From Candidatus Harpocratesius repetitus (lineage in GTDB: Archaea > Asgardarchaeota > Lokiarchaeia > Sigyniarchaeales > Promethearchaeaceae): DNA of 32,000 bases. A model generated the notes under the pieces. The model did no database searches. It was given only the letters and a program-made list of their open reading frames with translations, and had not been told where the DNA came from. A program made the translations under genes and the position numbers. The stretch's first letter is position 1, and every line of letters starts with the position of its first letter. The stretch lies in assembly GCA_021498095.1 (NCBI GenBank), contig JAIZWK010000001.1, positions 690,001 to 722,000 on the forward strand. The letters run 5' to 3'. Of the stretch, positions 7,833-29,582 are shown one piece after another.

Positions 7833-8024
7833 TAAATCAAATTTATAAATTTAGACTTCAAGATACAATTGTAGCAAGATATTTTTTAAAAAATCCTTTT
7901 TTAACTTCATATTATTTAAATTTATCGACATTAATCGAAAAATTTAACTTTTATTTTCAATTCTCTAAGTTAGATGCAAGATATTTTTGTATCTATTAGA
8001 ATATAATTATTGAGTGTGAACTAA

Positions 8025-9050
8025 ATGGGACATAGAAGGCAATCCGCCCCTCGACATGGATCTTTAGCATATCTGCCAAGAAAACGAGCAAGATATGGAA
8101 AGGGACGTGTCCGTCACTGGCTTCCCTATAATGATAAGGAAGTTAGATTTCAAGGATTCGCTGGATTTAAAGCAGGAATGACACATGTTGCATATATAGA
8201 AGATCAAGAACATAGCCCTTTCTTCGGTAAAGAATTAGTTAAAGCTGTAACTGTTCTTGAAACACCTCCACTCGTTTTATTTGGAGTAAAAGTATATCAC
8301 CGAGATGAATATGGATTAAATGCTATAGGTGAATTATATGCAAAAGAGTTGAAACCTGAATTAGGTCGAAAAATCCAGATTCCAAATCCAGAAACCTATA
8401 ATTTCGAGGAAAAATTAAAAGATCTCGAGTCTAAAATTCAAGATCATGATGAAATTCGAGGATTATTCCATACTCAACCATGGAAATCTAGTGTTCCCCG
8501 AATAAAACCCGATATCCTTGAAATTAATGTGACTGGCGGCAATGGCAGTGCAAAAGCTCAATTTAATTTTGTGTTGGAGCGCTTAGGGCAGGAAATTAGA
8601 GTTCGAGATGTTATTGAAGAAGGTACTTTGATTGACACAATTGGTGTTAGTAAAGGAAAAGGATTTCAAGGTGCTGTTAAAAAATTTGGCATTAAATTAA
8701 TGTCTCGAAAGAATCGAAAAGGAAAGCGGAGAGTTGGATGTATTGGTCCATGGAAACCCCCAAAACTACTTTATACTATTGCTAGATCTGGTCAAATGGG
8801 ATATCACCAACGGGTAGAATATAATAAACGTATCCTAAAAATCTCTGAAGATAGTGATGAAATTAATCCTAAAGGTGGATTTATTCGATATGGTCTTGTA
8901 AAAAGTGATTATTTAATCATACTAGGTTCAGTTCCAGGTCCAAAGAAGCGGTTAATTAGATTGAGAGATTGCATGAGACCTCGAGAAAATTTCAAGGTTT
9001 CAGCACCGGAAATTACTTATATTAGCAAACTCAGTCAACAGGGGAAATAG
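8025..9050 (+). CDS. rpl3: 50S ribosomal protein L3 (uL3)
   Basis: PRHGSLAYLPRKRA, FAGFKAGMTH, SKGKGFQGAVKKFG and GQMGYHQRVEYNK motifs. Confidence 0.98.
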   Translation: MGHRRQSAPRHGSLAYLPRKRARYGKGRVRHWLPYNDKEVRFQGFAGFKAGMTHVAYIEDQEHSPFFGKELVKAVTVLETPPLVLFGVKVYHRDEYGLNAIGELYAKELKPELGRKIQIPNPETYNFEEKLKDLESKIQDHDEIRGLFHTQPWKSSVPRIKPDILEINVTGGNGSAKAQFNFVLERLGQEIRVRDVIEEGTLIDTIGVSKGKGFQGAVKKFGIKLMSRKNRKGKRRVGCIGPWKPPKLLYTIARSGQMGYHQRVEYNKRILKISEDSDEINPKGGFIRYGLVKSDYLIILGSVPGPKKRLIRLRDCMRPRENFKVSAPEITYISKLSQQGK

Positions 9051-9060
9051 GTGAAATAAA

Positions 9061-10164: not shown

Positions 10165-10699
10165 GTGCGACAGAGTTAAGCTTAGTGGCAAAATTTCATA
10201 TAATTAGACCGTCTTTTCAGGGGACGCGTGGGACTCATGGCGACTTCAATTTCAATGATTGGGGCTCGAAAGCATCCATGAGAATGTACCGAAACTATCA
10301 ACTCTCGATTGGTGTAGGGCTACCCAGTAAAATTCCATGGCGAATTAGCATGAACTCGTGATTGAAGCTTCGTGAATTATACGCTGCGAAAGGAGAGTTG
10401 ATGTCTATTAGACGACGCAGCCGGACCAAACAGGCAAAAGCGTTAGGAACACATGGTGGAAAATCGTGTGTAACACCTGAACAAATAACGCTCGGAGTAA
10501 AGCGAGCGCCTACCGAATTTGTTATACGTTTACCATTAAGAACTCTGGAAACCTTCATCCCTGCTTGTGGCGAGATGAAGGGTGAGATTGGGAAAAAGCG
10601 AATGCCCCGAGTAATGTTGGGGATAGACCTATTGGTCAATCCGAAAGGATGCCCACTTCTCATGGCTCTACTTGAATTGGACGTATAGGAGACTTCTCC

Positions 10700-12229
10700 A
10701 TGACCGACATTTGCGAGACGAATCAACCCGTGCAAGGTAGTCAACACCACCAGCATGCCGATATTACATGGATTTTCATGAATCGTGAAGCTGCAAAACG
10801 TGGTGTGAAAAAGCTCCAACAACAGATATTTCAAGCAACTCGTGATAAGAACTTCTATACGGCTCGCCGACTTAAAAAGCTTTTATTTAAATCATTAAAT
10901 GCAAGATTTCTTGCCGTCCTTACAGTTACGTCCAACCAAGGTCGGTATACTCCAGATGTTGATGGAATTATTTTTAAAACACCTGAAGAAAAATGGGATC
11001 TTGTAGAAGATCTACGAAATATTAAGGAATATCAACCAAAACCCGTTCGTTTAGTGTACATTCCAAAACGTAATGGTAAGAAGCGGAAACTCGGTATTCC
11101 AACTATTAAAGATCGGGCAATGCAAATGTTGGTATATATTACAATGATTCCCGAATGGGAAGCACGTTTTGAACCTCACAGTTTTGGTTTTCGCCCAGGA
11201 CGAAGTCCTATTGATGCAGTCCATTATATCGGAGGAAATTTTGTTCCAAAGAAGGGAAAACGGCCACATCCGGGCTGGGTGCTTGATGCAGACATTTCTG
11301 CTTGTTTCGATAATATTAATCACAGTGCACTCCTCAGAAAGCTTCGTTATGAGCCCCAAATTGGTCTTATTAAAAGGTGGCTTAAAGCAGGCTCCATTTC
11401 TAAAATCGGATTTTCGTCTACCAATAAAGGTACACCACAAGGTGGTCCTATCAGCCCACTACTTGCCAACATTGCTCTTGATGGCATGGAACGAATATTT
11501 GGAATCTATAACAAATATGGAAGATATGTAAATCCTTCTCAACGACGTGGATCGAATAAACAATTGACAGTTTATCGATATGCTGACGATTTTATCGTTA
11601 CCGCACTTAGTAAAGAAATCCTAGAAGACTATGCATTACCAAAACTTAAAGAATTTCTTGAATCTCTTAGTTTATCATTAAACCACGCGAAAACCAAGAT
11701 TATTAACGTTTCAGAAGGTTTTGATTTTTTAGGTTTCCACTTTCATAGGTTTCATCGACGTGATGGCTCGGTTAAGCAGTTTATTTATGCTCCATGCCGT
11801 GACCGTTTAGATTCGTTTTTGAGGAAGTTGAAAATTTGGCTACGAAAATCTCAACACCTTGCTGTTGAAGAAATTATTACAGGATTAAATCGTAAAATTA
11901 AAGGTTTCTGTAATTAGTTTAAATGGAGTAATGCTCATAAAGCCTTTGTCTACCTTAACCATCGTATCTATAAGATGCTGTGGAATTGGGTAAGACATAG
12001 ACATCAAAGGAAACGTGGCGCAAAATGGTTAAAATATCGATACTGGCAACCAGTAGGAAAGAACAAATGGTTGTTCCACTTTAAAGGAGTAAAATTAATT
12101 GAATCTTACAAATTGACTACTCAATGGTGGAAACGACCTTCCGTTCGTCTTCAAACTTCTGTTTTCGACCCAAGTGCGGTTGACTATTGGAATAAGCGTT
12201 CTAATCAAGCAGTTTGGATTAACCCTTAA
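10700..12229 (+). pseudogene. ltrA: Group II intron RT/maturase with one in-frame TAG (11915-11917) and no HNH endonuclease domain
   Basis: RT0 (VKKLQQQIF...NQGRYTPDVDG), RKLGIPTIKDRAMQ, SFGFRPGRS, DADISACFDNI, GTPQGGPISPLLANI and catalytic YADD. Domain X reads GFCN*FKW and the frame continues (11975 is in frame with 10700) through LWNWVRHRH...VFDP...YWNKR to TAA at 12229. AGGAGA SD upstream of the start. Confidence 0.88.
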
Positions 12230-12256
12230 ATATTTAATGATTACGGGTGTGAGTCT

Positions 12257-12326
12257 GAGCCGGATGCGATGAAAGTCGCACGTCCGGTTCTGACGAACAG
12301 GGGGACTTATGTCTCCCCTGATTCAT
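12257..12326 (+). ncRNA. Group II intron catalytic domains V and VI
   Basis: DV is GAGCCGGATGCGATGAAAGTCGCACGTCCGGTTC (GAAA tetraloop, AC bulge). DVI is GAA-CAGGGGGAC-TTAT-GTCTCCCCTG-A-TTC-AT, with the branch A at 12321. Confidence 0.93.
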
Positions 12327-12636
12327 GCTTCCTGGTTTTTTATTATTAGTTTTAAGATGCAAATTTTCTTTAATTCGCTTAAATGAGCAAAACTTACATA
12401 ATTTTAATCTACAAGAAAAATAAGCGGGGTTAAAGACATACTTTTCTCGAAAGAGTGCTTTGGAATCCATTCTTAATCAATTTTATGTTACAATCACTAT
12501 AGGACATGGCTCTATTGAAAAAAAATTAAAATGCTCTCTAAAAGGGGGCATTACCCCCATTAGCTACATTTTTTTTCCTATTAAATCTAATTTCTTTTTG
12601 TACTACAATAATAGTTCATTTCATAATAAATAGAAT

Positions 12637-13020
12637 CTACGATTGGATGCTATTTTTAATTACGAAGGAACAATTCACAGACACCTTGGTTTGGACTTTT
12701 TCCCTCCATTTTTCGTTTAATTGAAATAATCGTTTAATTTCTGAATTATTCCACTCATTAAAGAGAATTTTTGGGCTAAATCGGTGCGGAACAATGGTAA
12801 TCCATAAGATTTTATGTTCATTTATGATTGTAATATATGCTTGAAGTCGCTGTTCTAAACCCTCAGGTGTTTTAAGACCAGTTTAATGCACACGAGTCTT
12901 AATCCCACTATTAATATTCTCCGCCAGATTATTTTATATAACTTTTGCCACAAATAGTCTTGTATTTCCTTTATAGCAACTGTAACTGCGGAGAGCATAT
13001 TTTTTACCAGTTTGAGAGTT
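12637..13020 (-). pseudogene. Decayed DDE transposase-like remnant (C-terminal part)
   Basis: One minus-strand frame gives about 128 codons with only two internal TAA: NSQTGKKYALRSYSCYKGNTRLFVAKVI*NNLAENINSGIKTRVH*TGLKTPEGLEQRLQAY... The NNxxExxNxxIKxR...GxK segment resembles the catalytic Glu helix of DDE transposases. The family cannot be assigned by eye. Confidence 0.35.
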
Positions 13021-13536
13021 TTATAAAAAATATCAATTTATGCATATCCCTGCTTTTCCTTGTCATAAGCTTTAAAATGGTACATACTTTGCTTAAAAAT
13101 TTCAGAATAGTTGCCAATAAGTTTTTTTTGAATTAAAATTTTGAAATAATTTAAAAAATAAGGCTTTTCTTAATTGATCCTTCCTTCTTAAAAATAGTCC
13201 GATTGGATTATAAAGTAGAAATTTTCTTAAAATCATATAATTTTTATGAGGTTATAGCAGAATTCGAAAAATTGAAGAAAATTCGGAAATCTTGCATCAT
13301 TTATCCATAAACTCCAAATCTATCCCAATTTTAAAATTGTCGAAAAATCGTTTAAGAAAAATATATATAATTGAGTCAATAATTCAAAGAAAAATGATGG
13401 AAATGTGAAATTCTTGACCGCATTTAAGGGTTTAAAAATGCCGACTCAAATAGTAATTGGATGCGCTGGAGTATTGTCGAAAATATTGGTCCAAAAGATA
13501 GAATTTGATTAAGATAAAAAAAATTGCTAGAGCCTC

Positions 13537-15045
13537 TTATAAAATATTTATAAATATTAATGATTTTGTGGAAAAAAATAATATAACAAAAAAGATAATA
13601 AAGAAAAGATCAATTTTCTGAAATTTATTTTTAGATGTCATTTTATTGAAAGAAAAGAGAATTACTATTAAAAAATAGAGTGAAATCAGAAAAATTCCCT
13701 CAATTCTTAAATTGTTAGTCGGAAATAGATTAAAATTAAGCGTATTTTGCAAATATAACTCATTTTTTGACAAAACTGATCTGAAAATGAAAATAAATAC
13801 GCTCAAGATACTCAAAATTATCGTTGAAATAAATTTAAATGTATTCGATTTTATCTTTATTTCTTTTAATATTAAATTCTTCTTCTTTTCGATTTTTATA
13901 TGTTGTTTAAAGATATGGTTAAGTATATAATAAAAATCAATACTTTTCTCACTATTTCGATTTAAAATTTGAAGAAACGTTTCTAATATAATTGAAATTT
14001 TTTGATCTTTCCCTTTTTTTTTAAGAAGATTAAAAAATTTAGATATTGGATTAAAACTTAAGTAAATTTTTATTAAATTTCTCTCTGAAATATTCTTAAA
14101 AGTCGAATTTTGAATTGATTCAAGTAATGCAAAATGAGCTGATGAGAACTGAAGATAATAACTCATCTTTTCAAGAAACTTAATTATTTCTAGTAGAGTT
14201 ATCTTATTATTCCTGCTATTATTTTCTGTTATTATTACTGGAAAAGAAATAATCCATCTTTTTTCAAGAAATACAAGTACCATAAGAAAAATTGATAAAA
14301 ACGAAAACCGATCAAGATTGGATTGAATATAGAAGAGATTTGCAAAGAAAAAGAGAATTGGGTAGAAAATTGTGATAAATGTCAAGATCTGCAGATGAGT
14401 TTCGAATTTTGATAAGAAAATCTCAAAGCGATATAAAAGTTTTTCTTCAAATTCTTCTACTAAAGAATGGTTTTTACTAAAAACTTTTGCTGAAATAAGG
14501 TGGTGATATAAATAATTAAATTCTTGAGAAAAAAATCTGATTTCCATTAGTTTTTCTTTTATACTTGCTCCAAAAAGAATTTCTTGGATTTTTTTTGAAG
14601 TATTTATTCCTAAAGTGGGAAAATATCTAAAAAAATTTATAATATAAACAAAAAAGTTTTCAGATTTATGAATAATTTGTGAATAAATTGTGAAATACAA
14701 GAGAAAAAAGCGATAAGAATCAATTTTTTTATTTTCTTGTTCTTTTGTTTCAATTAATAATATATTATTAGTATAGAAATATAAAATAAAAAAAGATGTA
14801 AGTAAAAAGGATAAAAATCCAGTACTTTTTGGTAAAAAAATAAAAATGATAAAATAAATTAATGTTAAACAAAAAAGAATTAAGAAATTCGCTTTTTTGA
14901 TCTGTTCATTTGTTATTCCATAAATGTATTCGATTCTATTTAGTTCTACTTTTTGATTTTTATTTTTAAAAAGAATTGGCTTTGATTTGAATTTTTGGCA
15001 CAAATTTATGTATAATTTTTGGAAATATTCATTAATTTCAATCAA
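13537..15045 (-). CDS. Pilus inner-membrane platform protein (TadB/TadC- or FlaJ-like, T2SS-F type)
   Basis: Three clusters of TM helices separated by two soluble domains; last gene of an operon with a pilus ATPase and prepilin peptidase. The call rests mainly on topology and context. Confidence 0.6.
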   Translation of the reverse strand: MIEINEYFQKLYINLCQKFKSKPILFKNKNQKVELNRIEYIYGITNEQIKKANFLILFCLTLIYFIIFIFLPKSTGFLSFLLTSFFILYFYTNNILLIETKEQENKKIDSYRFFLLYFTIYSQIIHKSENFFVYIINFFRYFPTLGINTSKKIQEILFGASIKEKLMEIRFFSQEFNYLYHHLISAKVFSKNHSLVEEFEEKLLYRFEIFLSKFETHLQILTFITIFYPILFFFANLFYIQSNLDRFSFLSIFLMVLVFLEKRWIISFPVIITENNSRNNKITLLEIIKFLEKMSYYLQFSSAHFALLESIQNSTFKNISERNLIKIYLSFNPISKFFNLLKKKGKDQKISIILETFLQILNRNSEKSIDFYYILNHIFKQHIKIEKKKNLILKEIKIKSNTFKFISTIILSILSVFIFIFRSVLSKNELYLQNTLNFNLFPTNNLRIEGIFLISLYFLIVILFSFNKMTSKNKFQKIDLFFIIFFVILFFSTKSLIFINIL

Positions 15046-15057
15046 AATATTCTCTTC

Positions 15058-15486
15058 CTAATAAAATTGAATGAATTTTGAATCATTAGATATTTCTACA
15101 ACATATCGAGATATTGTTTGATTTAAACCACTAACTTGAATATCTTTTGAAATCTTTAACTCAAATTGAATAAAAATACTTAAATTATTATTATAGAAAA
15201 ACAGAGTAATGTTTCTAATTTTGTTTTCAAAAAAACCTTCAATTTTTCCTTTTTGACTGTATTGAAGTTGGACTAATTCGCTGTAATTTGAGGAGAATGA
15301 TAGTTTTGATATCTTTTCATAGTTTTGCTTCAGACTTTCAATATCTGAATAAATTTTTTCAAGATCAGAGTTTGAATTCACTCTTAACCATGACAGGTTG
15401 AAAATTGGAATAAAAAATGGAAGAAAAATCAAGTTTAGAATTAACCCAATTACAATTATTAGATATTTTTCAATAATTTCACTCAT
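15058..15486 (-). CDS. Single-TM protein, possible minor pilin/TadE-like
   Basis: N-terminal SEIIE followed by about 20 hydrophobic residues; separated by 1 bp from the ATPase and 12 bp from the platform gene. Confidence 0.5.
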   Translation of the reverse strand: MSEIIEKYLIIVIGLILNLIFLPFFIPIFNLSWLRVNSNSDLEKIYSDIESLKQNYEKISKLSFSSNYSELVQLQYSQKGKIEGFFENKIRNITLFFYNNNLSIFIQFELKISKDIQVSGLNQTISRYVVEISNDSKFIQFY

Positions 15487-15487
15487 T

Positions 15488-17551
15488 TCAAAGTTCTTTT
15501 AATATATAATTATTAATATTACGATAAATTTTATTGATTTTCTTAAATATTTGAAAATTATCATATTCCTGATCTTTAATTAATGAATTGAAAAATGATG
15601 AAAATTCGGTAAAAATGTTTTCTAATTTTGTTAATTCTAATGTGAATAAGGAATTATTCGTATTTGTTAAGAAAGAACGAAATTCACTTATATTTTTTAT
15701 CCATTTTTTCAATTCAAAATTATAATTATATATTAATATAATTTTTACTTCCTTAATTTTTGAGTTATAAACGACTTGATAAATTGATTGAACAATTCTT
15801 CTTGAATCTAGCTTTTTCATAAAAACTATTATACCTAAATCATTTAAACAAGATGGATTAATTTTATAATGTATAATCCATCGATTTAATAGGCCATTAA
15901 TTGAAGAAGCATGAGTGGTTTGAAGTCCTTTTAATCCGGCACTTAGACAATGAAACATTGCATTAGTTTCTAATTTACTTAGTATCTCTCCTAAAATTAT
16001 AAAATCTCCTGATCTATGTAACAGATTATATATCTGTTTTTGCTTATTGTCCTTTCTTGAAGTCTCTGGTTCAACTTTAAATTTGAGTTGATGAGTAATC
16101 TTCTCAAAGATATCTAAAGACTCAATATTTTCTTCTAAATATATTTTTCTATAAGTAGAAGGAATGAAAAGGTCAATAGCGTTTAATAATGTGGTTTTTC
16201 CAGAATTTACTTCCCCAAAAATAGTTATATTTATCTTAAAATAAACTAAAAATATTAAAAAGCTTGCAATTTCATGGTTTATTGTATTTAATCGAATTAA
16301 ATCCATTAGCGTTAATGTTTTTTTTTTTAGATTACGAATATCTACACTAATATTTTTCCAATGTGAAGGGTAAATATCTATACTAATTCTTGCATAAAAA
16401 AATTGTGATTGAAAGACATGAGTAATACTTGGATTTTCAAAATCTAATCTTTTTTTACTTTCTAAGCAAACATATGTTTGAATTGCGTCAAGTTCTGTTT
16501 GATTTAACATAATATTGCTCTCTAATCGCCCATAAATTTGATGGTTAAAATATAGAAAATTATCCCGTTCGTCTAAAAATATTTCTTCAATATGATCATC
16601 TTGAAGAAAAATGAATATTTTTTCAATTTTTAAGAATTTTAATGTCAAAAGAAAAGCAATTTTATTTCTAGAATTGCTATTTATTGATTTATAATAACCA
16701 TCTAATAAATAATTAAATTTTGAAGAAATAACCATGATTCTTTCAGTTAAATCTTGTCTATTATCTAGAAAGTTGAATTTGCTTATTTTTGATTCTAAAA
16801 ATTGATAAAACTGATCAAATTTTGCAAGTAATGGTTTTTCGAGGTTAATTTCATAATAAATTTTCTTATTTTGATATTCAGCATCTTTTACAATTTTGAT
16901 AATAATCATGTCGCGAAAAATCAGATATTTATCGATAATATCTTGAGAATTGGGTATCATTTCTGTTTGGAATTGTAAATTATCTGTTTTTTTTAAATTT
17001 GGAATGATGTCTTTTAATGATTGGATATTCCAAGAAAACATTGCATAATTGGACCTTAAATATTCCGAAATTTTTGATTTTTCAACTAGCCTAACAATTT
17101 TTTCAATATTTTTTAGAACAAAAGAATATTTTTCTGTTTTTGATAGATTGATAAAAACTTGATTTTGGGACTGATAATTTGATTTTATATTTATTAATTC
17201 AAAAAAAAAGGTTACTGAAAATCGTTTTATAAAATGATTTAACTTAAAAATTCTGCGTTCATGTTTAAGATATGATTTCACTATATTTTCATATACTCTT
17301 TGCATCCTATTATATAATTTTTTGAGCAAAGTGAAAATTTCAATATCATCTTTTGATAATCTTAATCCAAATGGGCATTCTACTTCTTCAAATTCTTTCT
17401 GATTATATTTAATAAACTGGGTAAATATACAATTAAAACAATCTTTTTCAATACACGTTCCAGAAAATGAAGATTCTTCAGGGATTAATTTATATAAAGC
17501 ATGATTTTTCTTTGAAAAATCTGATCTTTCAATTTTAAAATAATCCATCAC
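15488..17551 (-). CDS. Type IV pilus/secretion ATPase (TadA/CpaF/VirB11/FlaI family)
   Basis: DDHIEEIF (N-domain motif), Walker A GEVNSGKTT, LEENIE (Asp box-like), FIILGEI (Walker B) and His box QTTHASS. Confidence 0.9.
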   Translation of the reverse strand: MMDYFKIERSDFSKKNHALYKLIPEESSFSGTCIEKDCFNCIFTQFIKYNQKEFEEVECPFGLRLSKDDIEIFTLLKKLYNRMQRVYENIVKSYLKHERRIFKLNHFIKRFSVTFFFELINIKSNYQSQNQVFINLSKTEKYSFVLKNIEKIVRLVEKSKISEYLRSNYAMFSWNIQSLKDIIPNLKKTDNLQFQTEMIPNSQDIIDKYLIFRDMIIIKIVKDAEYQNKKIYYEINLEKPLLAKFDQFYQFLESKISKFNFLDNRQDLTERIMVISSKFNYLLDGYYKSINSNSRNKIAFLLTLKFLKIEKIFIFLQDDHIEEIFLDERDNFLYFNHQIYGRLESNIMLNQTELDAIQTYVCLESKKRLDFENPSITHVFQSQFFYARISIDIYPSHWKNISVDIRNLKKKTLTLMDLIRLNTINHEIASFLIFLVYFKINITIFGEVNSGKTTLLNAIDLFIPSTYRKIYLEENIESLDIFEKITHQLKFKVEPETSRKDNKQKQIYNLLHRSGDFIILGEILSKLETNAMFHCLSAGLKGLQTTHASSINGLLNRWIIHYKINPSCLNDLGIIVFMKKLDSRRIVQSIYQVVYNSKIKEVKIILIYNYNFELKKWIKNISEFRSFLTNTNNSLFTLELTKLENIFTEFSSFFNSLIKDQEYDNFQIFKKINKIYRNINNYILKEL

Positions 17552-17585
17552 AGATATTTTTCATACTTATTTAAAAAATTCGAAA

Positions 17586-18083
17586 TTAAAATAAAAATGA
17601 TAAGATTAAAGAAAGCAATAAGAAAGGAATTAAGGGTATTTTTTTCATTTTCTTATTTATATGTAATATTTTGAAAAGAATAAGAATAAATATAAAAAAG
17701 AAAAAAAAAATAAAGAAATCAGGCAATGAATGAAAAAATAAAGGAAAAATCAAGAAAAAATCGTATTTTTGAGTTGGATTTATTAAATACAGAAGAACTA
17801 TTTTAACATCTGCACCCCCCAAATTACCTTTTATGTTTGAAGCAAGAAATATTAAAAAAACTAATATTTTAAATAGCAGAATATATGCATCCAGTTTATA
17901 CTCTTGAATAAAAATAAAAAAAAGGGAGAAGATAGAATTTACAATAAAGGCTTCTGATATTATGATATGATTTATTTTTTGATAAAGGAGATCTTCATAA
18001 CTAAATATAATAAAAAAAATAACTGTTGATATATTTAAAAGGAAGAATAAATCATTATTTATCATATTCATCCCAAAATTCAA
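17586..18083 (-). CDS. Prepilin peptidase (A24; PibD/FlaK/TadV-like)
   Basis: Multi-TM protein with both catalytic Asp motifs, SYEDL..QKI and LGGADVK. The true start may be one of the downstream Met codons (18071 or 18065). Confidence 0.8.
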   Translation of the reverse strand: MNFGMNMINNDLFFLLNISTVIFFIIFSYEDLLYQKINHIIISEAFIVNSIFSLFFIFIQEYKLDAYILLFKILVFLIFLASNIKGNLGGADVKIVLLYLINPTQKYDFFLIFPLFFHSLPDFFIFFFFFIFILILFKILHINKKMKKIPLIPFLLLSLILSFLF

Positions 18084-18351
18084 TTAGGTTTTTTATTGCT
18101 CTTGCTTTTATATTTTCATCGCGAAATCGATATATTTTTATTCTTCCAAAACACTTTTCTTCAATCAATTTAGCTTTTATTAGAAATTTTAAATGATTTT
18201 TGACACTATTATGATTTAAACCAGATAAATTTACTATATTTGATATATTTGTTTCATGGGTAATTACTAGAATTTTTATTATTTTCGTTCTTCCCTTGGA
18301 TGCAAATATATCTTCAATGTTAAGACCTGGTTCTTTGATTATAGTTTGCAT
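18055..18351 (-). CDS. Winged helix-turn-helix (ArsR-like) DNA-binding protein
   Basis: IFASKGRTKIIKIL...NISNIVNLSGLNHNSVKNHLKFL...LIEEKCFGRIKIYR is an HTH plus wing. Confidence 0.85.
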   Translation of the reverse strand: MQTIIKEPGLNIEDIFASKGRTKIIKILVITHETNISNIVNLSGLNHNSVKNHLKFLIKAKLIEEKCFGRIKIYRFRDENIKARAIKNLIEFWDEYDK

Positions 18352-18360
18352 GATAAATAA

Positions 18361-19566
18361 TCACATCTGGGAATTAAAACTTCGAATTTTGTTACCCAAT
18401 TTCTTATGCATTGTTTCAATGGGTAGATCATTAATTGAAATAAACGATTTTCTCCCTTTGATATTTTTTGAGATTGTATTAATTGAAATTAATCCAAAAT
18501 TTGCAAAATGCTGAAGATAAATCCATAATTGAGTATTTTTTCTCGGAGTTTTGTGTAAATTTAAACAAAGTTTTCCATAATTCTCTTTAATTTCAACAAA
18601 AGTTATTTTAGATTCACCAAAGTCAATAATTGAATCTAAAATTGAGAATAACAAAATATTTTCATGTAAATTTAACGAGTCAATAATATCAAATTGTAAA
18701 TTTGGAATAATATTATTTAAAGCGCTATCAATTTCTTTCTTAGAAACCTTATCAAGTTCTTTAGATTCAGCAATTTTTGTAGAATTTCTGATAATATTTA
18801 AGCCTTTTCTGATGTCTCCTGAACTTTCAATTTGTGATGCAATATATTCAATTAATTCTGTGGAAAATACATCTTGTTTTATAGAAATTTTAATTCTTGC
18901 TGATAGAATATCAATAATTTGATTTTTTGTATATTTTTTTAATGAAATGATATTACCTTGAAGAGTACTTTTCGTTGAATCATCTAAATTTCCTAAAAGG
19001 ATTAAATTTCGAACAATGATTATAAGTGAAATAAAATTTTTTCTATCATAATTGGTCTCATTTAAGCGAGAAAGACTATAAATTAAATTGAAATTAGAAA
19101 ATTGGAGATAATTAAGCTCATCTAGAGTCAATACTAGATAAATTTGCGATTTTTTTAAATAATCTTCTAAAAATGTAATAAGTTCTTGAACTGAATAACC
19201 TCGTGAGGAGAATTTGCAATTTAGATGAAAAAATATACGATTTAGAATATTGTAAGGCGTTTTTTCTTTTCTACAGTTTATATGGATATATTTAATATTC
19301 AAATTTCTTTTTTCTGAAGACATCAATAACATTTTTCCAAATGTTTTAGCAATAACTGTTTTTCCAATTCCGATTTCCCCTTGAATAGTAACTTTTCTTG
19401 AAATTAAGAAAGGATCTTCTAACAGTTTGACAAATATTTTGGAAAGTAAAATCAATTCTGTCTCTCGATGAATTAAAATATCTGGAATATAATTAATCTC
19501 CAAAAATTCTTCATGTAGAAATAACGTTTTCGAAAGAAATTGATCTTCTAAGTAATTTATCTCCAT
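18361..19566 (-). CDS. cdc6: Orc1/Cdc6 family AAA+ protein, probably Orc1-2/ORC2-like subfamily
   Basis: YIPDILIHRE, Walker A GEIGIGKT, YIHINC, Walker B LTLDELN, sensor-2 GDIRKG and C-terminal winged helix PRKNTQLWIYLQHFANFGLI...KGRKS. The subfamily call is from remembered similarity to crenarchaeal ORC2-type wings. Confidence 0.95.
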   Translation of the reverse strand: MEINYLEDQFLSKTLFLHEEFLEINYIPDILIHRETELILLSKIFVKLLEDPFLISRKVTIQGEIGIGKTVIAKTFGKMLLMSSEKRNLNIKYIHINCRKEKTPYNILNRIFFHLNCKFSSRGYSVQELITFLEDYLKKSQIYLVLTLDELNYLQFSNFNLIYSLSRLNETNYDRKNFISLIIIVRNLILLGNLDDSTKSTLQGNIISLKKYTKNQIIDILSARIKISIKQDVFSTELIEYIASQIESSGDIRKGLNIIRNSTKIAESKELDKVSKKEIDSALNNIIPNLQFDIIDSLNLHENILLFSILDSIIDFGESKITFVEIKENYGKLCLNLHKTPRKNTQLWIYLQHFANFGLISINTISKNIKGRKSFISINDLPIETMHKKLGNKIRSFNSQM

Positions 19567-19650
19567 CTGTTTTGTTCACCAAATAACAAATATTAAGAAA
19601 TTTGTCGGAGAGTAATTAAAGAAAAAATGGATGGAAGTTTTCTTAATTAT

Positions 19651-19872
19651 CTATATTCCTTCAAAATAAGAAATAACAGAAATAAATTGTTCTTCAATCC
19701 AATTATAAATATTTGTTACAATTCCAATTAACATTAAAAATAATATTAAAGATAGCGCAATTAATAATCCAGATTCGAGCATTGATCCTCCTGAATTGTC
19801 ATTTAATAATAATTTAATTTTCATCCATATTTTTTTTGAGTTCTTAATAAGTTTCTTTTTTATCATAATCAT
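19651..19872 (-). CDS. Short Flp-like/class III signal peptide pilin
   Basis: Basic leader, then NSG|GSMLE with Glu at +5, followed by the hydrophobic stretch SGLLIALSLILFLMLIGIV. The start may be the Met at 19824. Confidence 0.75.
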   Translation of the reverse strand: MIMIKKKLIKNSKKIWMKIKLLLNDNSGGSMLESGLLIALSLILFLMLIGIVTNIYNWIEEQFISVISYFEGI

Positions 19873-20056
19873 TAATTTTAAAGAAGAATAAAAATTCCGA
19901 AATTTTAAAATTAGCTTTCCACTAATAATATTGTTTAGGATTTAAAGATTTACGTTGTTTTATAACAATGAGGAACCTCGCTTCTTATTCTTGACCGAGG
20001 GAATTAAAGATGAGAATCTAATCTTAGAATAGAAACGTCTTTGATATTACAATGTA

Positions 20057-20179
20057 ATGATTTTTCAAATGAACTGTAATTATCAAATTGAAACGACTAA
20101 GATCCTCGAAGAAAGGGAAAAAAAGCGCAAAATTTGTCAAGAGTTTGCTTTGAGTGTCCCGACTAGTTGGATGTCTTAG
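20057..20179 (+). CDS. Putative 40-aa small protein (MIFQMNCNYQIETTKILEEREKKRKICQEFALSVPTSWMS)
   Basis: ATG at 20057 to TAG at 20179, divergent from the pilin operon, with a charged helical composition. Absent from the ORF track and has no homology support. Confidence 0.25.
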   Translation: MIFQMNCNYQIETTKILEEREKKRKICQEFALSVPTSWMS

Positions 20180-20228
20180 TATATATAACAATATACACAA
20201 AAAAGCGGGTATTAAATCCATAAACATA

Positions 20229-23200
20229 TTATATTTTTATTTTTTTTATTCTTCTTCTTTTAGGTTTAAACTTGATAATTTTTCGTTTTTTTAAAAAATA
20301 AATTCCAAATAGAGCAGACCCAAAACCAAGAAATATTGAAATAGGTTCTTTAATTGTTTCATAATTAAATTCTACTTTGTATATTTTAGAATATTCATCA
20401 ATATCTCCGTTAAAATCTAAAATTTTCAATGAAATATTAATAAATTTATTTGGGTTTGAAATATAAAGAGTAATTTCACTTGTATTGGTTGAATAAACAT
20501 TAGAATCAACAAACCAAATTAACTTTCCAGGTTGGTTTCCAATCAATCCATCAAAAATAAACTTGATATATGTCTGTCTCTTTACTTTTGAAGTATTTGC
20601 GAAAAACGATGAAAATGGGAATAAATCTTTAACTATAGATAAGTTACTAAAAATAAAATAATCTTTGTCACCATCAAAATCAAACACATTTAATGAAACG
20701 GTATAGTTTCCTGGAGTTTCATAAAAATGTATTGGGTTTCTTTCATTTGATTTACATCCATCCCCAAAGTTCCAATAATACTGTAGATGTCCATTCCCTT
20801 CATTTCCGCAAAATATGAATGCAATTTCTTGCTTTTCTACTGCAGTTGTGCTATTTATTATAAATTGGGCTGTTGGGAATAAATCTGATAAAACATAAAT
20901 ATTCATATTTTCAATTATTTGGATATCTCCATCCCAATCCTTCACAATTAAAGAAATAGAGAAATTTCCTACTTTTTGATATAAATGTACTGGAGTTACT
21001 TTACTTGAATTAAAACCATCTCCAAAATCCCAAAAAAATTGAAAAGGTTCATTTCCATATACTCCTTTTGTTGTAAAATTAATTTTTTGTCCTAAAACTA
21101 TTTTGCTTGAATTGAGAATACAAGAAATTTTAGGAAATATATCTTCTTCTACTATTATAGAACATTGAGTTTGGAATTTATCACCATCTGAATCAATAAC
21201 TAATAAAGTAATAGTATAATTTCCTGATGAAGTAAATATATATAAGATACTTACATTCGATGAAATATTTCCATCACTTATATTCCAATAATATGAAAAA
21301 GGTAAATTTCCTTGAAATATATTTGCGCTAATTAAAATGGGTGAGTTTTCAATAATACGACTTGTATTTAACTGAATATTTACTAACGGAGCGAAATCTT
21401 CTTTGACAATAATGATATTATGCTTAGCGCATGTGTCAATATCAAAATTGATATCCATTATTGAAAGATATATTGAATAAACTCCAGGATTTTGATAAAT
21501 ATGAGATGGATTTTCTAAGGATGAATTAAATCCATCTCCAAAGTCCCAAAAAAAAGTTACATTTCCATTGCCTATTGATCCAGTAAACCAAAAATATATT
21601 ATTTGACCAGCAATAATTTCTTCAGAACTAATTGAAAATTGTGCTTGAGGTATTCTATTTTCTCTTATATCAATTATTGAATAAGTTGAAAAGAAATCAC
21701 CATTTCCATCCAGAATTTCAATTGAAACATTAAATATCCCTGACATCATATAAGAATGGATTGGATTGAGTTCATTTGAAATATTCCCATCCCCAAAATT
21801 CCATAAAACTTTAACAGGTTCATTACCAAAACAACCAATAAAATCAAAAGTAATCTGATCTTCACTAAAATAATCTTTTTGAACAAATGAGATTATCCCT
21901 TGAGGTTTTTTATCTTCTTGAATTGAAATGTTTATCGAAATTATATCGATTTGATCGTTTTTATCTTTTAAAATTAATGTCACTTGATATACTCCAATTT
22001 CAGTATAAAAATAACTTGGATCTACCTTCAATGAATGATTTCCATCTCCAAAATCCCAAAAGAATTTAGTTGGTTCATTTCCTTTTGACCCTGTAAAATT
22101 AAATTGAATCTGTTGGTTAACGAATAAAAAATCTTGGTTAATTGTGAAATTTGCTTGAGGAAGTAAATCAATTCCAATTATTATAGTAATTAAGTAAACT
22201 GAAATATCTCCATCACTATCTTGAACTGCAAGACTTACATTATAGAAACCTTCAAAAAGATAAATGTGTATAGGATTCGTTATAGTTGAGTTAGCTCCAT
22301 CTCCAAAGTCCCAAAAGAATTTAGTTGGATCATTTCCTTTTGACCCTGTGAAATTAAATTGAATCTGTTGATTAACGAATAAAAAATCTTGGTTAATTGT
22401 GAAATTTGCTTGAGGAAATAACTCTGTTTCAATTTTTATAGTAATTAAGTAAACTGAAATATCTCCATCACTATCTTGAACTGCAAGACTTACATTATAG
22501 AAACCTTCAAAAAGATAAATGTGTATAGGATTCGTTATAGTTGAGTTAGCTCCATCTCCAAAGTCCCAAAAGAATTTAGTTGGATCATTTCCTTTTGATC
22601 CTGTGAAATTAAATTGAATCTGTTGATTAACGAATAAAAAGTCCTGGTTAATTGTGAAATTTGCTTGAGGAAGTAAATCAATTCCAATTTTTATAGTAAT
22701 TAAGTAACTTGAAATATTTCCATCATTATCTTGAAGCGTAAGACTTACATTATAAAAACCTTCAAAAAGATAAATGTGTATAGGATTCGTTATAGTCGAG
22801 TTAGCTCCATCTCCAAAGTCCCAAAAGAATTTAGTTGGATCATTTCCTTTTGACCCTGTGAAATTAAATTGAATCTGTTGATTAACGAATAAAAAATCTT
22901 GGATAATTGTGAAATTTGCTTGAGGAAGTAAATCAATTCCAATTATTATAGTAATTAAGTAAACTGAAATATCTCCATCATTATCTTGAAGCGTAAGACT
23001 TACGTTATAGAAACCTTCAAAAAGATAAATGTGTATAGGATTCGTTATAGTTGAGTTAGCTCCATCTCCAAAGTCCCAAAAGAATTTAGTTGGATCATTT
23101 CCTTTTGACCCTATGAAATTAAATTGAATCTGTTGATTAACGAATAAAAAGTCTTGGTTAATTGTGAAATTTGCTTGAGGAAGTAAATCAATTCCAATTT

Positions 23201-26120
23201 TTATAGTAATTAAGTAAACTGAAATATCTCCATCATTATCTTGAAGCGTAAGACTTACATTATAAAAACCTTCAAAAAGATAAATGTGTATAGGATTCGT
23301 TTCAGTTGAGTTAGCTCCATCTCCAAAGTCCCAAAAGAATTTAGTTGGATCATTTCCTTTTGACCCTGTGAAATTAAATTGAATCTGTTGATTAACGAAT
23401 AAAAAGTCTTGGTTAATTGTGAAATTTGCTTGAGGAAGTAAATCAATTCCAATTTTTATAGTAATTAAGTAAACTGAAATATCTCCATCATTATCTTGAA
23501 GCGTAAGACTTACATTATAAAAACCTTCAAAAAGATAAATGTGTATAGGATTCGTTATAGTTGAGTTAGCTCCATCTCCAAAGTCCCAAAAGAATTTAGT
23601 TGGATCATTTCCTTTTGACCCTGTGAAATTAAATTGAATCTGTTGATTAACGAATAAAAAGTTCTGGTTAATTGTGAAATTTGCTTGAGGAAATAACTCT
23701 GTTTCAATTTTTATAGTAATTAAGTAAACTGAAATATCTTCATCACTATCTTGAACTGCAAGACTTACATTATAGAAACCTTCAAAAAGATAAATGTGTA
23801 TAGGATTCGTTATAGTTGAGTTAGCTCCATCTCCAAAGTCCCAAAAGAATTTAGTTGGATCATTTCCTTTTGACCCTGTGAAATTAAATTGAATCTGTTG
23901 ATTAACGAATAAAAAGTCCTGGTTAATTGTGAAATTTGCTTGAGGAAGTAAATCAATTCCAATTTTTATAGTAATTAAGTAAACTGAAATATCTCCATCA
24001 TTATCTTGAAGCGTAAGACTTACATTATAAAAACCTTCAAAAAGATAAATGTGTATAGGATTCGTTTCAGTTGAGTTAGCTCCATCTCCAAAGTCCCAAA
24101 AGAATTTAGTTGGATCATTTCCTTTTGACCCTGTGAAATTAAATTGAATCTGTTGATTAACGAATAAAAAATCTTGGATAATTGTGAAATTTGCTTGAGG
24201 AAGTAAATCAATTCCAATTTTTATAGTAATTAAGTAAACTGAAATATCTCCATCATTATCTTGAAGCGTAAGACTTACATTATAAAAACCTTCAAAAAGA
24301 TAAATGTGTATAGGATTCGTTTCAGTTGAGTTAGCTCCATCTCCAAAGTCCCAAAAGAATTTAGTTGGATCATTTCCTTTTGATCCTGTGAAATTAAATT
24401 GAATCTGTTGATTAACGAATAAAAAATCTTGGTCAATAGTGAAATTTGATTGTGGAATTATATTTTTGATTACAACAATATAAGATATCTTTTCACAAGT
24501 AATTTGATGTTCTTCTTCATCAGTTATTGTCAATGATATTGAATAATTTCCCATTTCACAATAAGAGTGTATTGGGTTAGTTTCAGTTGAGTTAGTTCCA
24601 TCTCCAAAATCCCAAAACAAAAAAAATAGACCAGTACCAGTTAATCCTGTAAATTGAAATGAAATATCTTCATTTTCATATGATAAAGTTATATTTGATT
24701 TGAAATCAGGGAATAAGGGTCGAAATATTTCTATTGTATTTGATAAAGAACTAGATACAATTGTTGTTCCAGAAAAAAAAATTCTAAAATAATAAATAGA
24801 AATATTTGCAAAATTATCAATTTTTTTCAATTCCGACCAAAGTAATGCAAAACTTAATTTCGATTGATTATCTTCAAATTTTGAAATTGAAAAATTGAGT
24901 GATTCCCATTCTTCATCTATTTTTAATTGTAAATCAAACATTGAAGAATTATATTGATAGATGTTTTTTTGCATATTATCTTGAAGAGTAAACATGATAG
25001 ATTCATTAACTGTAAAATTTTTACAAAAAAGTGTCAAATTCAATGATTGTTGATAAAAGTTAATCGAAAATGTGTTATTTATTATGTAATAATTTGAAGA
25101 ATTTCCCCATAAACTAAAAGAAAAATTTCCGATCTTTTTTGGATTTTCAAATTTAATATTAGATATATTATATTCTATATTAATTGAGATAAAAACTAAA
25201 TTTGATCTTAATTCCCATTCAATACCTTCAAGATTTATTGATGAATTATTTGAATCTACAACGAAAAAATCAAATTCAATAAAATCATTGTTAACATCAA
25301 CTTCTTCTGCTGAATTGTTAATGAAATTAATATACGATATACAAGGCTCTATTTCTACATCTAAAATTATTTGGTTTTTGATAAATTCTTCATTTTCGGG
25401 TATATTTAAAACTAGAGTATAGTTTCCTATATCAGTAATATTAAAATCAAAGAAATTAATTACTAAAATTCCTGAATTATTTAGTTCATATTGAGAATAA
25501 TAGGAAACTGTTTCATTTTTAATTAATTCACAAAATAATTCTCCAAAATCATATGCTTTGGTCATATTTTCGAATGCAATAATTTGATTTTCATATAATC
25601 TGTAGTTATTAAATTCCAAAGAGATTTTCTGATGATTATTAAATAAAGATGGTGTATATTTTGAAATATTGACACTAGTTGGATATTTGTCAACCACAGA
25701 ATTACTTGGTTCATCATTAATGTAAAGGAAAAATGTTAAAACTAACCAATATTGTTTTGTCAACATTCTTTGATTCAATGACAATTCAGTTAAGTTAATA
25801 TTTGTATATAATTCATGATATCCATTATTTTCAGGGCAGTCTATTATATAAATTGATTTTTCAAATAATAGATCGATTGATAGACTTTCTGGGGTTTCAT
25901 TCAAAAAAAAGATTTTTACTCCTAAATTCTCTGAGGTTTGAGAATAATAATTCCAAGTAGCATTTATTTTTATTAATTCATCTATAAAATAGTTTTCTTT
26001 ATCTGTTTCAATTTTTGGTGGTGGATCTAATGCAAAAAAAGCATTTACCACAATAAAATAATCTAAAATCGCCGTTATACAAAGGAAAAGAGTGATTGAA
26101 ATAATTAAAGTTTTTTTCAT
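20229..26120 (-). CDS. Giant PKD-repeat cell-surface protein (about 17 PKD domains, 1963 aa)
   Basis: Repeated WDFGDG...NPIH.Y...G.Y.VSL PKD motif. N-terminal signal/TM, C-terminal TM (ISIFLGFGSALFGIYFL) and a basic tail. Confidence 0.92.
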   Translation of the reverse strand: MKKTLIISITLFLCITAILDYFIVVNAFFALDPPPKIETDKENYFIDELIKINATWNYYSQTSENLGVKIFFLNETPESLSIDLLFEKSIYIIDCPENNGYHELYTNINLTELSLNQRMLTKQYWLVLTFFLYINDEPSNSVVDKYPTSVNISKYTPSLFNNHQKISLEFNNYRLYENQIIAFENMTKAYDFGELFCELIKNETVSYYSQYELNNSGILVINFFDFNITDIGNYTLVLNIPENEEFIKNQIILDVEIEPCISYINFINNSAEEVDVNNDFIEFDFFVVDSNNSSINLEGIEWELRSNLVFISINIEYNISNIKFENPKKIGNFSFSLWGNSSNYYIINNTFSINFYQQSLNLTLFCKNFTVNESIMFTLQDNMQKNIYQYNSSMFDLQLKIDEEWESLNFSISKFEDNQSKLSFALLWSELKKIDNFANISIYYFRIFFSGTTIVSSSLSNTIEIFRPLFPDFKSNITLSYENEDISFQFTGLTGTGLFFLFWDFGDGTNSTETNPIHSYCEMGNYSISLTITDEEEHQITCEKISYIVVIKNIIPQSNFTIDQDFLFVNQQIQFNFTGSKGNDPTKFFWDFGDGANSTETNPIHIYLFEGFYNVSLTLQDNDGDISVYLITIKIGIDLLPQANFTIIQDFLFVNQQIQFNFTGSKGNDPTKFFWDFGDGANSTETNPIHIYLFEGFYNVSLTLQDNDGDISVYLITIKIGIDLLPQANFTINQDFLFVNQQIQFNFTGSKGNDPTKFFWDFGDGANSTITNPIHIYLFEGFYNVSLAVQDSDEDISVYLITIKIETELFPQANFTINQNFLFVNQQIQFNFTGSKGNDPTKFFWDFGDGANSTITNPIHIYLFEGFYNVSLTLQDNDGDISVYLITIKIGIDLLPQANFTINQDFLFVNQQIQFNFTGSKGNDPTKFFWDFGDGANSTETNPIHIYLFEGFYNVSLTLQDNDGDISVYLITIKIGIDLLPQANFTINQDFLFVNQQIQFNFIGSKGNDPTKFFWDFGDGANSTITNPIHIYLFEGFYNVSLTLQDNDGDISVYLITIIIGIDLLPQANFTIIQDFLFVNQQIQFNFTGSKGNDPTKFFWDFGDGANSTITNPIHIYLFEGFYNVSLTLQDNDGNISSYLITIKIGIDLLPQANFTINQDFLFVNQQIQFNFTGSKGNDPTKFFWDFGDGANSTITNPIHIYLFEGFYNVSLAVQDSDGDISVYLITIKIETELFPQANFTINQDFLFVNQQIQFNFTGSKGNDPTKFFWDFGDGANSTITNPIHIYLFEGFYNVSLAVQDSDGDISVYLITIIIGIDLLPQANFTINQDFLFVNQQIQFNFTGSKGNEPTKFFWDFGDGNHSLKVDPSYFYTEIGVYQVTLILKDKNDQIDIISINISIQEDKKPQGIISFVQKDYFSEDQITFDFIGCFGNEPVKVLWNFGDGNISNELNPIHSYMMSGIFNVSIEILDGNGDFFSTYSIIDIRENRIPQAQFSISSEEIIAGQIIYFWFTGSIGNGNVTFFWDFGDGFNSSLENPSHIYQNPGVYSIYLSIMDINFDIDTCAKHNIIIVKEDFAPLVNIQLNTSRIIENSPILISANIFQGNLPFSYYWNISDGNISSNVSILYIFTSSGNYTITLLVIDSDGDKFQTQCSIIVEEDIFPKISCILNSSKIVLGQKINFTTKGVYGNEPFQFFWDFGDGFNSSKVTPVHLYQKVGNFSISLIVKDWDGDIQIIENMNIYVLSDLFPTAQFIINSTTAVEKQEIAFIFCGNEGNGHLQYYWNFGDGCKSNERNPIHFYETPGNYTVSLNVFDFDGDKDYFIFSNLSIVKDLFPFSSFFANTSKVKRQTYIKFIFDGLIGNQPGKLIWFVDSNVYSTNTSEITLYISNPNKFINISLKILDFNGDIDEYSKIYKVEFNYETIKEPISIFLGFGSALFGIYFLKKRKIIKFKPKRRRIKKIKI
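22042..24455 (-). repeat. Intragenic tandem repeat, 255-bp (85-aa) unit, 9 full copies plus about half a copy
   Basis: Unit starts (Pro codon, minus strand) fall at 24455, 24200, 23945, 23690, 23435, 23180, 22925, 22670, 22415 and 22160, an exact 255-bp period with near-identical DNA. Confidence 0.97.
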
Positions 26121-29370: not shown

Positions 29371-29582
29371 AGGTTAAAGAAAAAATCAAATTCAAGAGTT
29401 AAATGATTTCTTAGGAATTTTGATGTAATTAAAGTAATTATTATTTCATTTAGATAGTAAAAAGTTTAGATCAGAGAGACATAATTGAAAATAGAATTTT
29501 TATGGATACGATTTTTTATATTTTAAAGCTAATAGTAATGTCGGACTATTTATCTAAATTTTAAAAATATTATTTAGAAAAA

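Follow-up and report, generated by a model that had tools for sequence, protein, structure and literature searches.

The window considered here is a 32,000-nucleotide stretch of Candidatus Harpocratesius repetitus DNA, corresponding to positions 690001-722000 of a closed 4.36-Mb genome with a GC content of 31%. The host genome belongs to the same family as those of Promethearchaeum syntrophicum MK-D1 and Lokiarchaeum ossiferum. Between positions 13537 and 19872, the open reading frame (ORF) listing of the window contains seven co-directional minus-strand ORFs, in which an Orc1/Cdc6 gene and a winged helix-turn-helix (wHTH) gene are enclosed by the genes of an archaeal type IV filament (T4F). 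In order of transcription, with lengths in amino acids (aa), these are:

19651-19872, minus strand: Flp-like prepilin with a class III signal, 73 aa (alignment and weak Pfam Flp_Fap matches)
18361-19566, minus strand: Orc1/Cdc6 paralogue, likely of Orc1-2/ORC2 type, 401 aa (Pfam, TIGR02928, intact AAA+ motifs)
18055-18351, minus strand: ArsR/SmtB-type winged-helix protein, 98 aa (NF033788, family profile, position next to cdc6)
17586-18083, minus strand: A24 (GxGD) prepilin peptidase, 165 aa (Pfam matches of orthologues; the gene overlaps the wHTH gene by 29 nucleotides (nt))
15488-17551, minus strand: FlaI/TadA-family secretion ATPase, 687 aa (T2SSE and FlaI model)
15058-15486, minus strand: minor-pilin-like protein, 142 aa (fold match of an AlphaFold2 (AF2) model)
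13537-15045, minus strand: FlaJ/TadC-like polytopic platform protein, 502 aa (fold match of an AF2 model)

From pilin to platform the genes are separated by 84, 9, -29, 34, 1 and 12 bp, and the listing thus agrees in every value with a preliminary description of this DNA, which had drawn attention to the seven co-directional genes and their spacing.

The filament genes are highly divergent, and their identities have been established by combining profile, alignment and structural evidence. The pilin alignment shows a basic leader, a Gly-Gly/Ala-Gly site and invariant S30 and E33 residues followed by a hydrophobic helix, with weak Flp_Fap matches in seven of twelve orthologues. The peptidase of the window itself gave no Pfam match; Peptidase_A24 was matched by 13 of its 15 orthologues, in which D31 and a G89-x-x-D92-x-K94 motif are invariant, comprising the two catalytic Asp residues. 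The ATPase matches Pfam T2SSE (2.8e-11), being the sole strong match to this family in the genome, and its best NCBIfam match is FlaI (1.8e-23, versus 5.8e-9 for the TadA model). An AF2 model of the 142-aa protein, with a predicted local distance difference test score (pLDDT) of 85, has an N-terminal helix followed by a beta sandwich and matches MJ0832.1, EpdB and MJ1288.1. For the platform protein, nothing was obtained from Pfam, a profile search of the PDB or a Foldseek search against the PDB; only a fold search of AlphaFold-DB related its model (pLDDT 80) to FlaJ of M. jannaschii and M. voltae, over nearly the full length (E 2.6e-6, template modelling score 0.57), and also to MJ1286. The locus therefore encodes a complete archaeal T4F core: a Flp-like pilin, an A24 peptidase, a FlaI-like ATPase, a FlaJ-like platform and an Epd-like minor pilin. 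The label 'Tad' used in the preliminary description suits the Flp-like pilin and fails for the motor, as the ATPase matches FlaI best and there is one FlaJ-like platform protein. Of the marks of a bacterial-type Tad/Flp pilus, a secretin ORF, a TadZ ORF and separate TadB and TadC were not found.

The same set of ATPase, platform, A24 class III signal peptidase, short major pilin and Epd-like minor pilin makes up known archaeal T4F cores, such as Epd pili and the archaellum with its FlaI, FlaJ and FlaK proteins. When compared to these, the sequences of the window are very divergent, to the extent that Pfam misses the platform, the pilin and the peptidase, and the locus is ordered and holds Cdc6 and wHTH genes. 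A 2026 survey of T4F systems has described Asgard T4F genes as rarely found in one locus (PMC13705601). Lokiarchaeales thus carry an ordered yet very divergent T4F locus that is largely missed by current family models. An additional feature of the ATPase is an N-terminal extension (residues 1-390) with a Cys cluster of the form C-x4-C-x2-C...C, also present in the orthologues of a second Loki family (f3) and of Thorarchaeia, which may be a Zn-binding or regulatory domain.

The cdc6-wHTH pair and its conservation

Three Orc1/Cdc6 genes are present in the genome. The protein encoded at 902 kb (L001) scores 322 bits to Aeropyrum ORC1 (2V1U) and 319 bits to Sulfolobus Orc1-1 (2QBY_A). The window Cdc6 scores 107 and 102 bits to these two initiators, respectively, 124 bits to Pyrobaculum Cdc6 and 86 bits to Aeropyrum ORC2, and shares only 25% identity with the 902-kb copy. 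By these comparisons the 902-kb gene is a canonical Orc1-1-type initiator and the window Cdc6 is distinct from it. The latter matches Cdc6_lid, Cdc6_C and AAA_22 in Pfam, as well as TIGR02928 (222 bits, cut-off 181), and the residues that are invariant in 26 orthologues (G63, G66, G68, K69, T70, D149, E150, D251 and R253) cover Walker A, Walker B and the sensor-2 'GDAR' motif. A search of 151 Asgard genomes has detected an orthologue in 121 of them at E<=1e-40, with 29-36% identity; the in-genome paralogues reach only 65-75 bits against the window Cdc6. Judged by these scores, the protein is a member of a deep, mostly single-copy Asgard orthogroup.

The C-terminal part of the protein points to a particular branch of the family. 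When the winged helix alone was used in a structure search, only Pyrobaculum aerophilum Cdc6 (1FNN) and Aeropyrum pernix ORC2 (1W5S) were recovered, with zero initiator structures; 1FNN is also the best structural match of the full-length protein. In the alignment to ORC2, which follows the pattern PRKNTQ...YL...GL, PRKNTQ lies over PRGYTQ and the wing KGRK over RGRT; the PR-x-x-TQ and wing G-R-K/R features are shared. A recent study (PMC12490963) treats 1W5S as an Orc1-2 homologue and describes the DNA-binding signature of Orc1-2 as an Arg-containing helix with an adjacent conserved Thr, which it calls Orc1-2-specific, together with an Arg pair in the wing. The ORC2/Orc1-2-like wing proposed in the preliminary description is borne out by these matches and by the aligned signature residues, and the window Cdc6 likely belongs to the Orc1-2 clade. 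Unlike the window protein, those of 1W5S and 1FNN have no known wHTH partner or pilus linkage, and identity to them is low.

The product of the gene that follows cdc6 is matched by NF033788 at 8.8e-9, with a score of 35 bits that is below the cut-off of 55, and its family profile matches the structures of CzrA, SmtB and CadC at 1e-7 to 1e-5. In 35 of 40 loci sampled through cdc6, the two genes are adjacent. Conversely, cdc6 directly adjoins the wHTH gene in 78 of the 80 loci found through the wHTH motif EKxFGRI[RK]IY (79 Asgard-labelled loci and one from a Bathyarchaeia-labelled metagenome-assembled genome), and the two exceptions, L146 and L173, are short contigs. These loci cover Loki, Thor, Hel, Baldr, Jord, Frey, Hermod and Sif genomes. 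The wHTH gene is, by gene content, a near-obligate neighbour of this cdc6, and the pair is near-universal in Asgard archaea. A prediction of the Cdc6-wHTH complex gave a score of 0.02 and has been used as evidence neither way.

Linkage to filament genes has been observed at several levels. The trio of cdc6, wHTH and A24 peptidase genes is kept in two Loki families (f1 and f3), and the full seven-gene array occurs in this genome, two congeners, MK-D1 and its relatives, and L. ossiferum. The recurrence in relatives indicates that the arrangement is not a chance juxtaposition, and the fused seven-gene array is, in the genomes compared, specific to the Promethearchaeum/Lokiarchaeum family. In f3, in G005 and in one other genome, the opposite strand holds the genes for the ATPase, minor pilin and platform at a distance of a few kb, and in Thorarchaeia an ATPase gene is found approximately 5 kb upstream of cdc6. 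In 51 of the 80 loci, many of which are partial, a T4F ATPase gene is located no more than 8 kb from the pair. The survey of relatives suggested in the preliminary description has therefore found the gene order kept, as a trio in two Loki families and as a pair near T4F genes in many classes. Second copies of the cdc6 orthologue have also been seen in L042 (G005:C16), L054 (G015:C16) and L083 (G067:C7); those of G005 and G067 are accompanied by a wHTH gene and their own T4F gene set, and next to that of G015 no wHTH gene was detected and T4F genes lie 4-13 kb off.

A shared upstream element

In 49 loci from Thor, Baldr and several other classes, an element of about 20 nt is found upstream of cdc6, at a distance of 50-99 nt from the start codon in all but one. 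Its consensus is approximately yTAwTACTTTCGGnaACCTCy, with a ANTTTCGG core followed by ACCTC. A matrix trained solely on these cdc6-upstream sites finds a second class of sites in the same loci, upstream of a divergent paralogue of transcription factor B (TFB, TFIIB), a gene that in Thorarchaeia directly precedes the T4F ATPase gene, followed by pilin genes. Among 67 distinct regions preceding the TFB paralogue, scores of 8 bits or more were reached by 44, versus 0 of 67 reversed controls, and the sites are always located 124-162 nt before the start. Since sites from related genomes are not independent, weight is placed on the existence of two conserved site classes and not on the raw number of matches.

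The element closely resembles the DNA-damage-responsive element (DDRE) of Sulfolobus, AATAGTTTCRGWDTACTCWS, the ANTTTC core of which has been footprinted by Orc1-2 (PMC6061795). When the published Sulfolobus consensus, derived free of Asgard data, was scanned over 1.5 Mb of Asgard loci, 20 matches with at most 3 mismatches were obtained, versus 0 in the control. The best of them, AATAGTTTCGGTGAACTCTC, differs at one position (19/20) and lies upstream of a Thorarchaeia TFB paralogue. In Sulfolobus, a DDRE in the orc1-2 promoter lets Orc1-2 regulate its own expression, and the protein also activates tfb3, ced and the ups genes for pili (PMC6061795; PMC12490963). A logic of the Ups/TFB3 kind had been suggested for the present locus, and in its relatives a near-Sulfolobus box does precede, at the sequence level, both the cdc6-wHTH pair and the operon of TFB paralogue and T4F genes. 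The sharing of one element between the cdc6-wHTH genes and the TFB-paralogue/ATPase/pilin operon is new in this analysis. In Thorarchaeia (L090 4424-4789 and L125 2384-2749), the DDRE-like box, with the TFB-paralogue and ATPase genes behind it, is immediately preceded by a conserved gene of 121 aa that gave no Pfam match.

The window itself holds a TFB paralogue and several short counterparts of the element, listed here with a further box and run upstream of cdc6:

28345-29370, minus strand: divergent TFB (TFIIB) paralogue of the class of about 340 aa, orthologues of which directly precede the Thorarchaeia T4F ATPase gene
29474-29497, minus strand: degenerate DDRE-like copy with core ATTTTC and then TCTCTC, 127 nt upstream of the TFB-paralogue start
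19894-19906, minus strand: AAAATTTCGGAAT box (AAAATTTCGG) with a ANTTTCGG core, about 30 nt upstream of the pilin start
17568-17587, minus strand: AATTTCG followed by a TTTAAAT (TATA-like) box, just upstream of the ATPase start
19597-19608, minus strand: CCGACAAATTTC box, 30 nt upstream of the cdc6 start and preceded by a T-run at 19615-19627

The copy before the TFB paralogue occupies the position of the high-scoring sites of other classes and scores below 0 with the Thor-trained matrix; the corresponding copies in genome G001, and then in MK-D1, are progressively nearer the consensus. At the pilin-upstream site, [AT]TTTCG is kept in all seven family members. Only five ANTTTCG sites exist in 7.3 kb of this strand, and the pilin and ATPase boxes are two of them; 17568-17587 is a possible internal promoter. 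Upstream of cdc6, the CCGACAA of the CCGACAAATTTC box does not vary among seven genomes of three genera, five of which have the box in full; the box is probably a cdc6 promoter or operator, and the T-run could terminate pilin transcripts. The preliminary description had thought it probable that cdc6 is co-transcribed with all core pilus genes. In view of these boxes and the T-run this is only one option, and a separate pilin unit, a cdc6-to-platform unit and an internal ATPase promoter are all possible. The CGACAAATTTC 11-mer, with an 11-fold enrichment in the genome, was considered as a regulon signal and rejected, its enrichment being due to a dispersed repeat of approximately 26 copies. This repeat starts with TGATCGACAAATTTCAAATTTGGATGGAAT, occurs in at least 26 copies in the genome (G000; for example at 187106, 250132 and 2701956), inflates the counts of the 11-mer, which is found also upstream of cdc6, and is probably the end of an insertion sequence or of a miniature inverted-repeat transposable element.

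Role of the pair

The nearest known counterpart is the Orc1-2/TFB3/Ups-Ced response of Sulfolobales (PMC6061795; PMC9738581; PMC12490963). There, a non-initiator Orc1/Cdc6 paralogue, as the window Cdc6 probably is, exists beside a canonical initiator and likewise has an ORC2-type winged helix with PR-x-x-TQ, and an ANTTTC-centred box precedes the regulator gene, a TFB paralogue and type IV pilus (T4P) genes, with Asgard relatives matching that box at up to 19 of 20 positions. The two systems also differ. In Asgard archaea the regulator is paired with an ArsR-type wHTH and lies beside the filament locus or, as here, inside it, whereas the Sulfolobales targets are dispersed; the Asgard TFB paralogue is of full length (about 340 aa), unlike that of the Sulfolobales system; and the window holds only degenerate copies of the motif. 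A second comparison is offered by T4P clade 4D of Thermoproteales, in which the ATPase and platform genes are accompanied by a TFIIB homologue and sometimes by RPB8. The TFIIB paralogue of Thorarchaeia likewise stands directly before the T4F ATPase gene, and the position of the 121-aa gene recalls the TFIIB-plus-RPB8 association, a likeness of layout. Clade 4D has no Flp-like pilin, which is present here, and the TFB paralogue of the window is approximately 8.5 kb away.

Building on the gene identities, orthology, synteny and shared motif described above, the explanation that we favour, by a modest degree, is that Cdc6 and its ArsR-type partner form an Orc1-2-type, ATP-dependent DNA-binding switch over the TFB paralogue, the filament genes and the pair itself, fused in this lineage into the filament operon. 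The window Cdc6 would be an Asgard member of the non-initiator Orc1-2/ORC2-type branch, would act together with the wHTH as the switch, and would govern a small regulon made up of the TFB paralogue, the T4F genes and its own operon. In Thor, Baldr and other classes the pair and the TFB-paralogue/ATPase/pilin operon lie a few kb apart, each with the same element, and this layout would be the ancestral one. In the Promethearchaeum/Lokiarchaeum family the pair would then have moved into the filament operon, such that the regulator would be co-transcribed with the peptidase, ATPase, minor-pilin and platform genes, and the pilin gene and the distant TFB paralogue would retain only remnants of the element. 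By analogy with Sulfolobus, Cdc6 (or the wHTH) would bind the motif, the trigger would be DNA damage or a cell-cycle cue, and the filament would serve aggregation or DNA exchange.

Several observations weigh against this proposal. The family profile scores 300 bits to 1FNN, 287 to 2QBY_A, 245 to 2V1U and 185 to 1W5S, so that class I and class II proteins are not cleanly separated by it. Within the genus, Cdc6 and wHTH are 73% and 81% identical, respectively, versus 40-52% for the pilus genes, as would be expected of a core function. In a third family of the Loki order (f4) the pair is kept without detectable pilus genes. Unbiased clustering of neighbours showed that housekeeping genes are linked to the pair about as often as T4F genes; they encode both RFC subunits (large and small), a TruA-like synthase, ABCE1, L3-L4-L23 and S17e. 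The RNase P RNA gene is also part of the neighbourhood. The T4F linkage could thus partly reflect a conserved origin-proximal block, and the locus probably does lie in a conserved core block of this kind. Given that the pair persists without pilus genes and sits among housekeeping genes, linkage alone is weaker evidence of regulation than the preliminary description had assumed. In Jord- and Freyarchaeia (L120, L149, L152, L159 and L164), where the pair likewise persists with no pilus genes adjacent, as well as in L087, a second cdc6 is arranged head-to-head with the first, at a distance of approximately 110-170 bp, and this arrangement could mark an origin in the two classes. Regarding the cis evidence, the Thor-type matrix gave 5 matches in this genome versus 9 in the control, with none of at least 6 bits in the window, where only short cores are left, of a kind that carries little weight in DNA of 22% GC. 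The motif evidence of the window is therefore merely suggestive and the case rests on orthology. Finally, the protein that recognises the motif could be the wHTH or the TFB paralogue and not Cdc6.

Two other explanations have been weighed. In one, which we consider unlikely, Cdc6 is a secondary initiator that, with the wHTH as a helper, acts at a second origin within the origin-proximal block of housekeeping genes, the pilus genes being passengers and any co-transcription incidental. The intact AAA+ motifs and very high conservation of Cdc6 agree with such a role, as do the 287 bits of its family profile to Sulfolobus Orc1-1, the fact that 10 of 18 families have the RFC large- and small-subunit genes beside the pair, and the location of this cdc6 39-194 kb from the canonical one in three closed genomes and approximately 243 kb, in L. 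ossiferum, from a paralogue presumed canonical by length alone. The flanks of the window cdc6, of 84 and 9 bp, leave no room for an origin, a canonical initiator already exists in the genome, and the winged helix is of ORC2 type. No ORB-like (origin recognition box) repeat family was found in 12.3-20.3 kb of the window, nor were clear ORB-like repeats found near the canonical cdc6. Each promoter has a single copy of the upstream element at a set distance, with another before the TFB paralogue, which is the pattern of an operator and not of an ORB array. The cumulative AT/GC skew can be read both ways: it turns at 0.52-0.64 Mb, nearer 708 kb than 902 kb, but the signal is broad and weak, and its extremes lie 70-190 kb away and at none of the three cdc6 genes. 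The pair is, on balance, probably a regulator and not an origin factor.

The other explanation divides the roles, with the ArsR-type wHTH alone acting as a repressor of the pilus or TFB-paralogue genes through the GGTNACC half of the element and Cdc6 performing a separate, co-expressed job in chromatin, checkpoint or cell-cycle control. We hold this to be quite improbable. ArsR-like regulators are indeed known near archaeal T4P and archaellin genes (PMC4858521), the element contains the short palindrome GGT-N-ACC, and in f4 the pair follows ftsZ. Nevertheless, Sulfolobus Orc1-2 footprints the ANTTTC half of the element, and the adjacency of the two genes, which often overlap, is almost invariant across the phylum and argues for a joint function. 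The f4 loci in question (L051 of G016, 6259-9051, and L052 of G022) carry a same-strand ftsZ directly before cdc6-wHTH, and downstream of the pair a 261-aa ORF followed by a signal-peptidase-I-like gene.

Orc1/Cdc6 genes are common on archaeal mobile elements, and this frequency, together with the low GC content of the locus (22-24%, versus 31% genome-wide) and a group II intron 1.2 kb away, would be compatible with an integrated plasmid- or virus-derived Orc1/Cdc6 replication module with a conjugation-like pilus. Such an origin is effectively excluded, as the orthogroup is vertical, mostly single-copy throughout the phylum and found among the same housekeeping genes; integrase, relaxase and att repeats were not seen, and the flanking 20-32 kb are as AT-rich as the locus itself.

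No publication describing this synteny was found. Two surveys, a 2016 T4P census (PMC4858521) and the 2026 T4F survey (PMC13705601), do not mention Cdc6 or Orc1 in such loci, and the main text of a paper on the Asgard replisome (PMC12680538) makes no mention of pili, winged-helix proteins or a Cdc6-pilus association; publications that name both Orc1-2 and Asgard draw no link between them. The one master regulator known for a DNA-damage response in archaea is Orc1-2, so far in Sulfolobales only, and the authors of the Sulfolobus work have asked whether other members of the Orc1-2 cluster share that job. A probable Asgard counterpart that is fixed phylum-wide beside Sulfolobus-type targets, namely a TFB paralogue and T4F genes, with a near-identical operator in many lineages, makes this question experimentally addressable in the cultured MK-D1 and L. 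ossiferum, and bears on how ORC-family proteins gained roles beyond origin binding in the lineage toward eukaryotes. We suggest, tentatively and with some doubt, that the Orc1-2-type switch, the TFB paralogue and the T4F genes formed one DDRE-like regulon before the Asgard and TACK archaea diverged from their common ancestor, with the Sulfolobus circuit as its dispersed descendant and the Lokiarchaeal fusion as a hard-wired form. If this were the case, the closest archaeal relatives of eukaryotes would have an ORC-family, checkpoint-like transcriptional control of cell-cell contact or DNA exchange.

Surroundings of the locus

Upstream of the pilin gene, and divergent from it, a structural RNA gene has been identified:

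19938-20219, plus strand: RNase P RNA gene (RF00373, full-model match), divergent from the pilin gene

The RF00373 match (58.5 bits, E 7.6e-16) is the only one in the genome and is below the gathering score of 84, for which reason standard annotation probably misses this gene. The sequence is near-invariant across seven Loki-family genomes, in which the gene is always divergent from that of the pilin. A 67-aa ORF at 20024-20227 falls within the RNase P RNA and has been dismissed as spurious for that reason. The RNA gene fills most of the 356 bp upstream of the pilin, and the real pilin upstream region is therefore 19873-19937; the region 19873-20056, which the preliminary description had named as a promoter for electrophoretic mobility shift assays, consists mostly of the RNase P RNA gene.

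Further upstream, a 1963-aa surface protein with PKD repeats is encoded at 20229-26120 on the minus strand, directly upstream of the genes for RNase P RNA and the pilin. In Loki and Thor loci the equivalent place is taken by a surface protein of PKD or Ig-like type, and it may belong to the same surface module. On the opposite side of the locus, the group II intron, with a reverse transcriptase ORF, occupies 10165-12326 and follows the L3-L4-L23 genes. A 1.2-kb stretch from 12323 to 13536, up to the stop codon of the platform gene, has no ORF of at least 80 aa and no Rfam match, and it includes a 43-nt imperfect inverted repeat (12650-12692 and 13155-13197).

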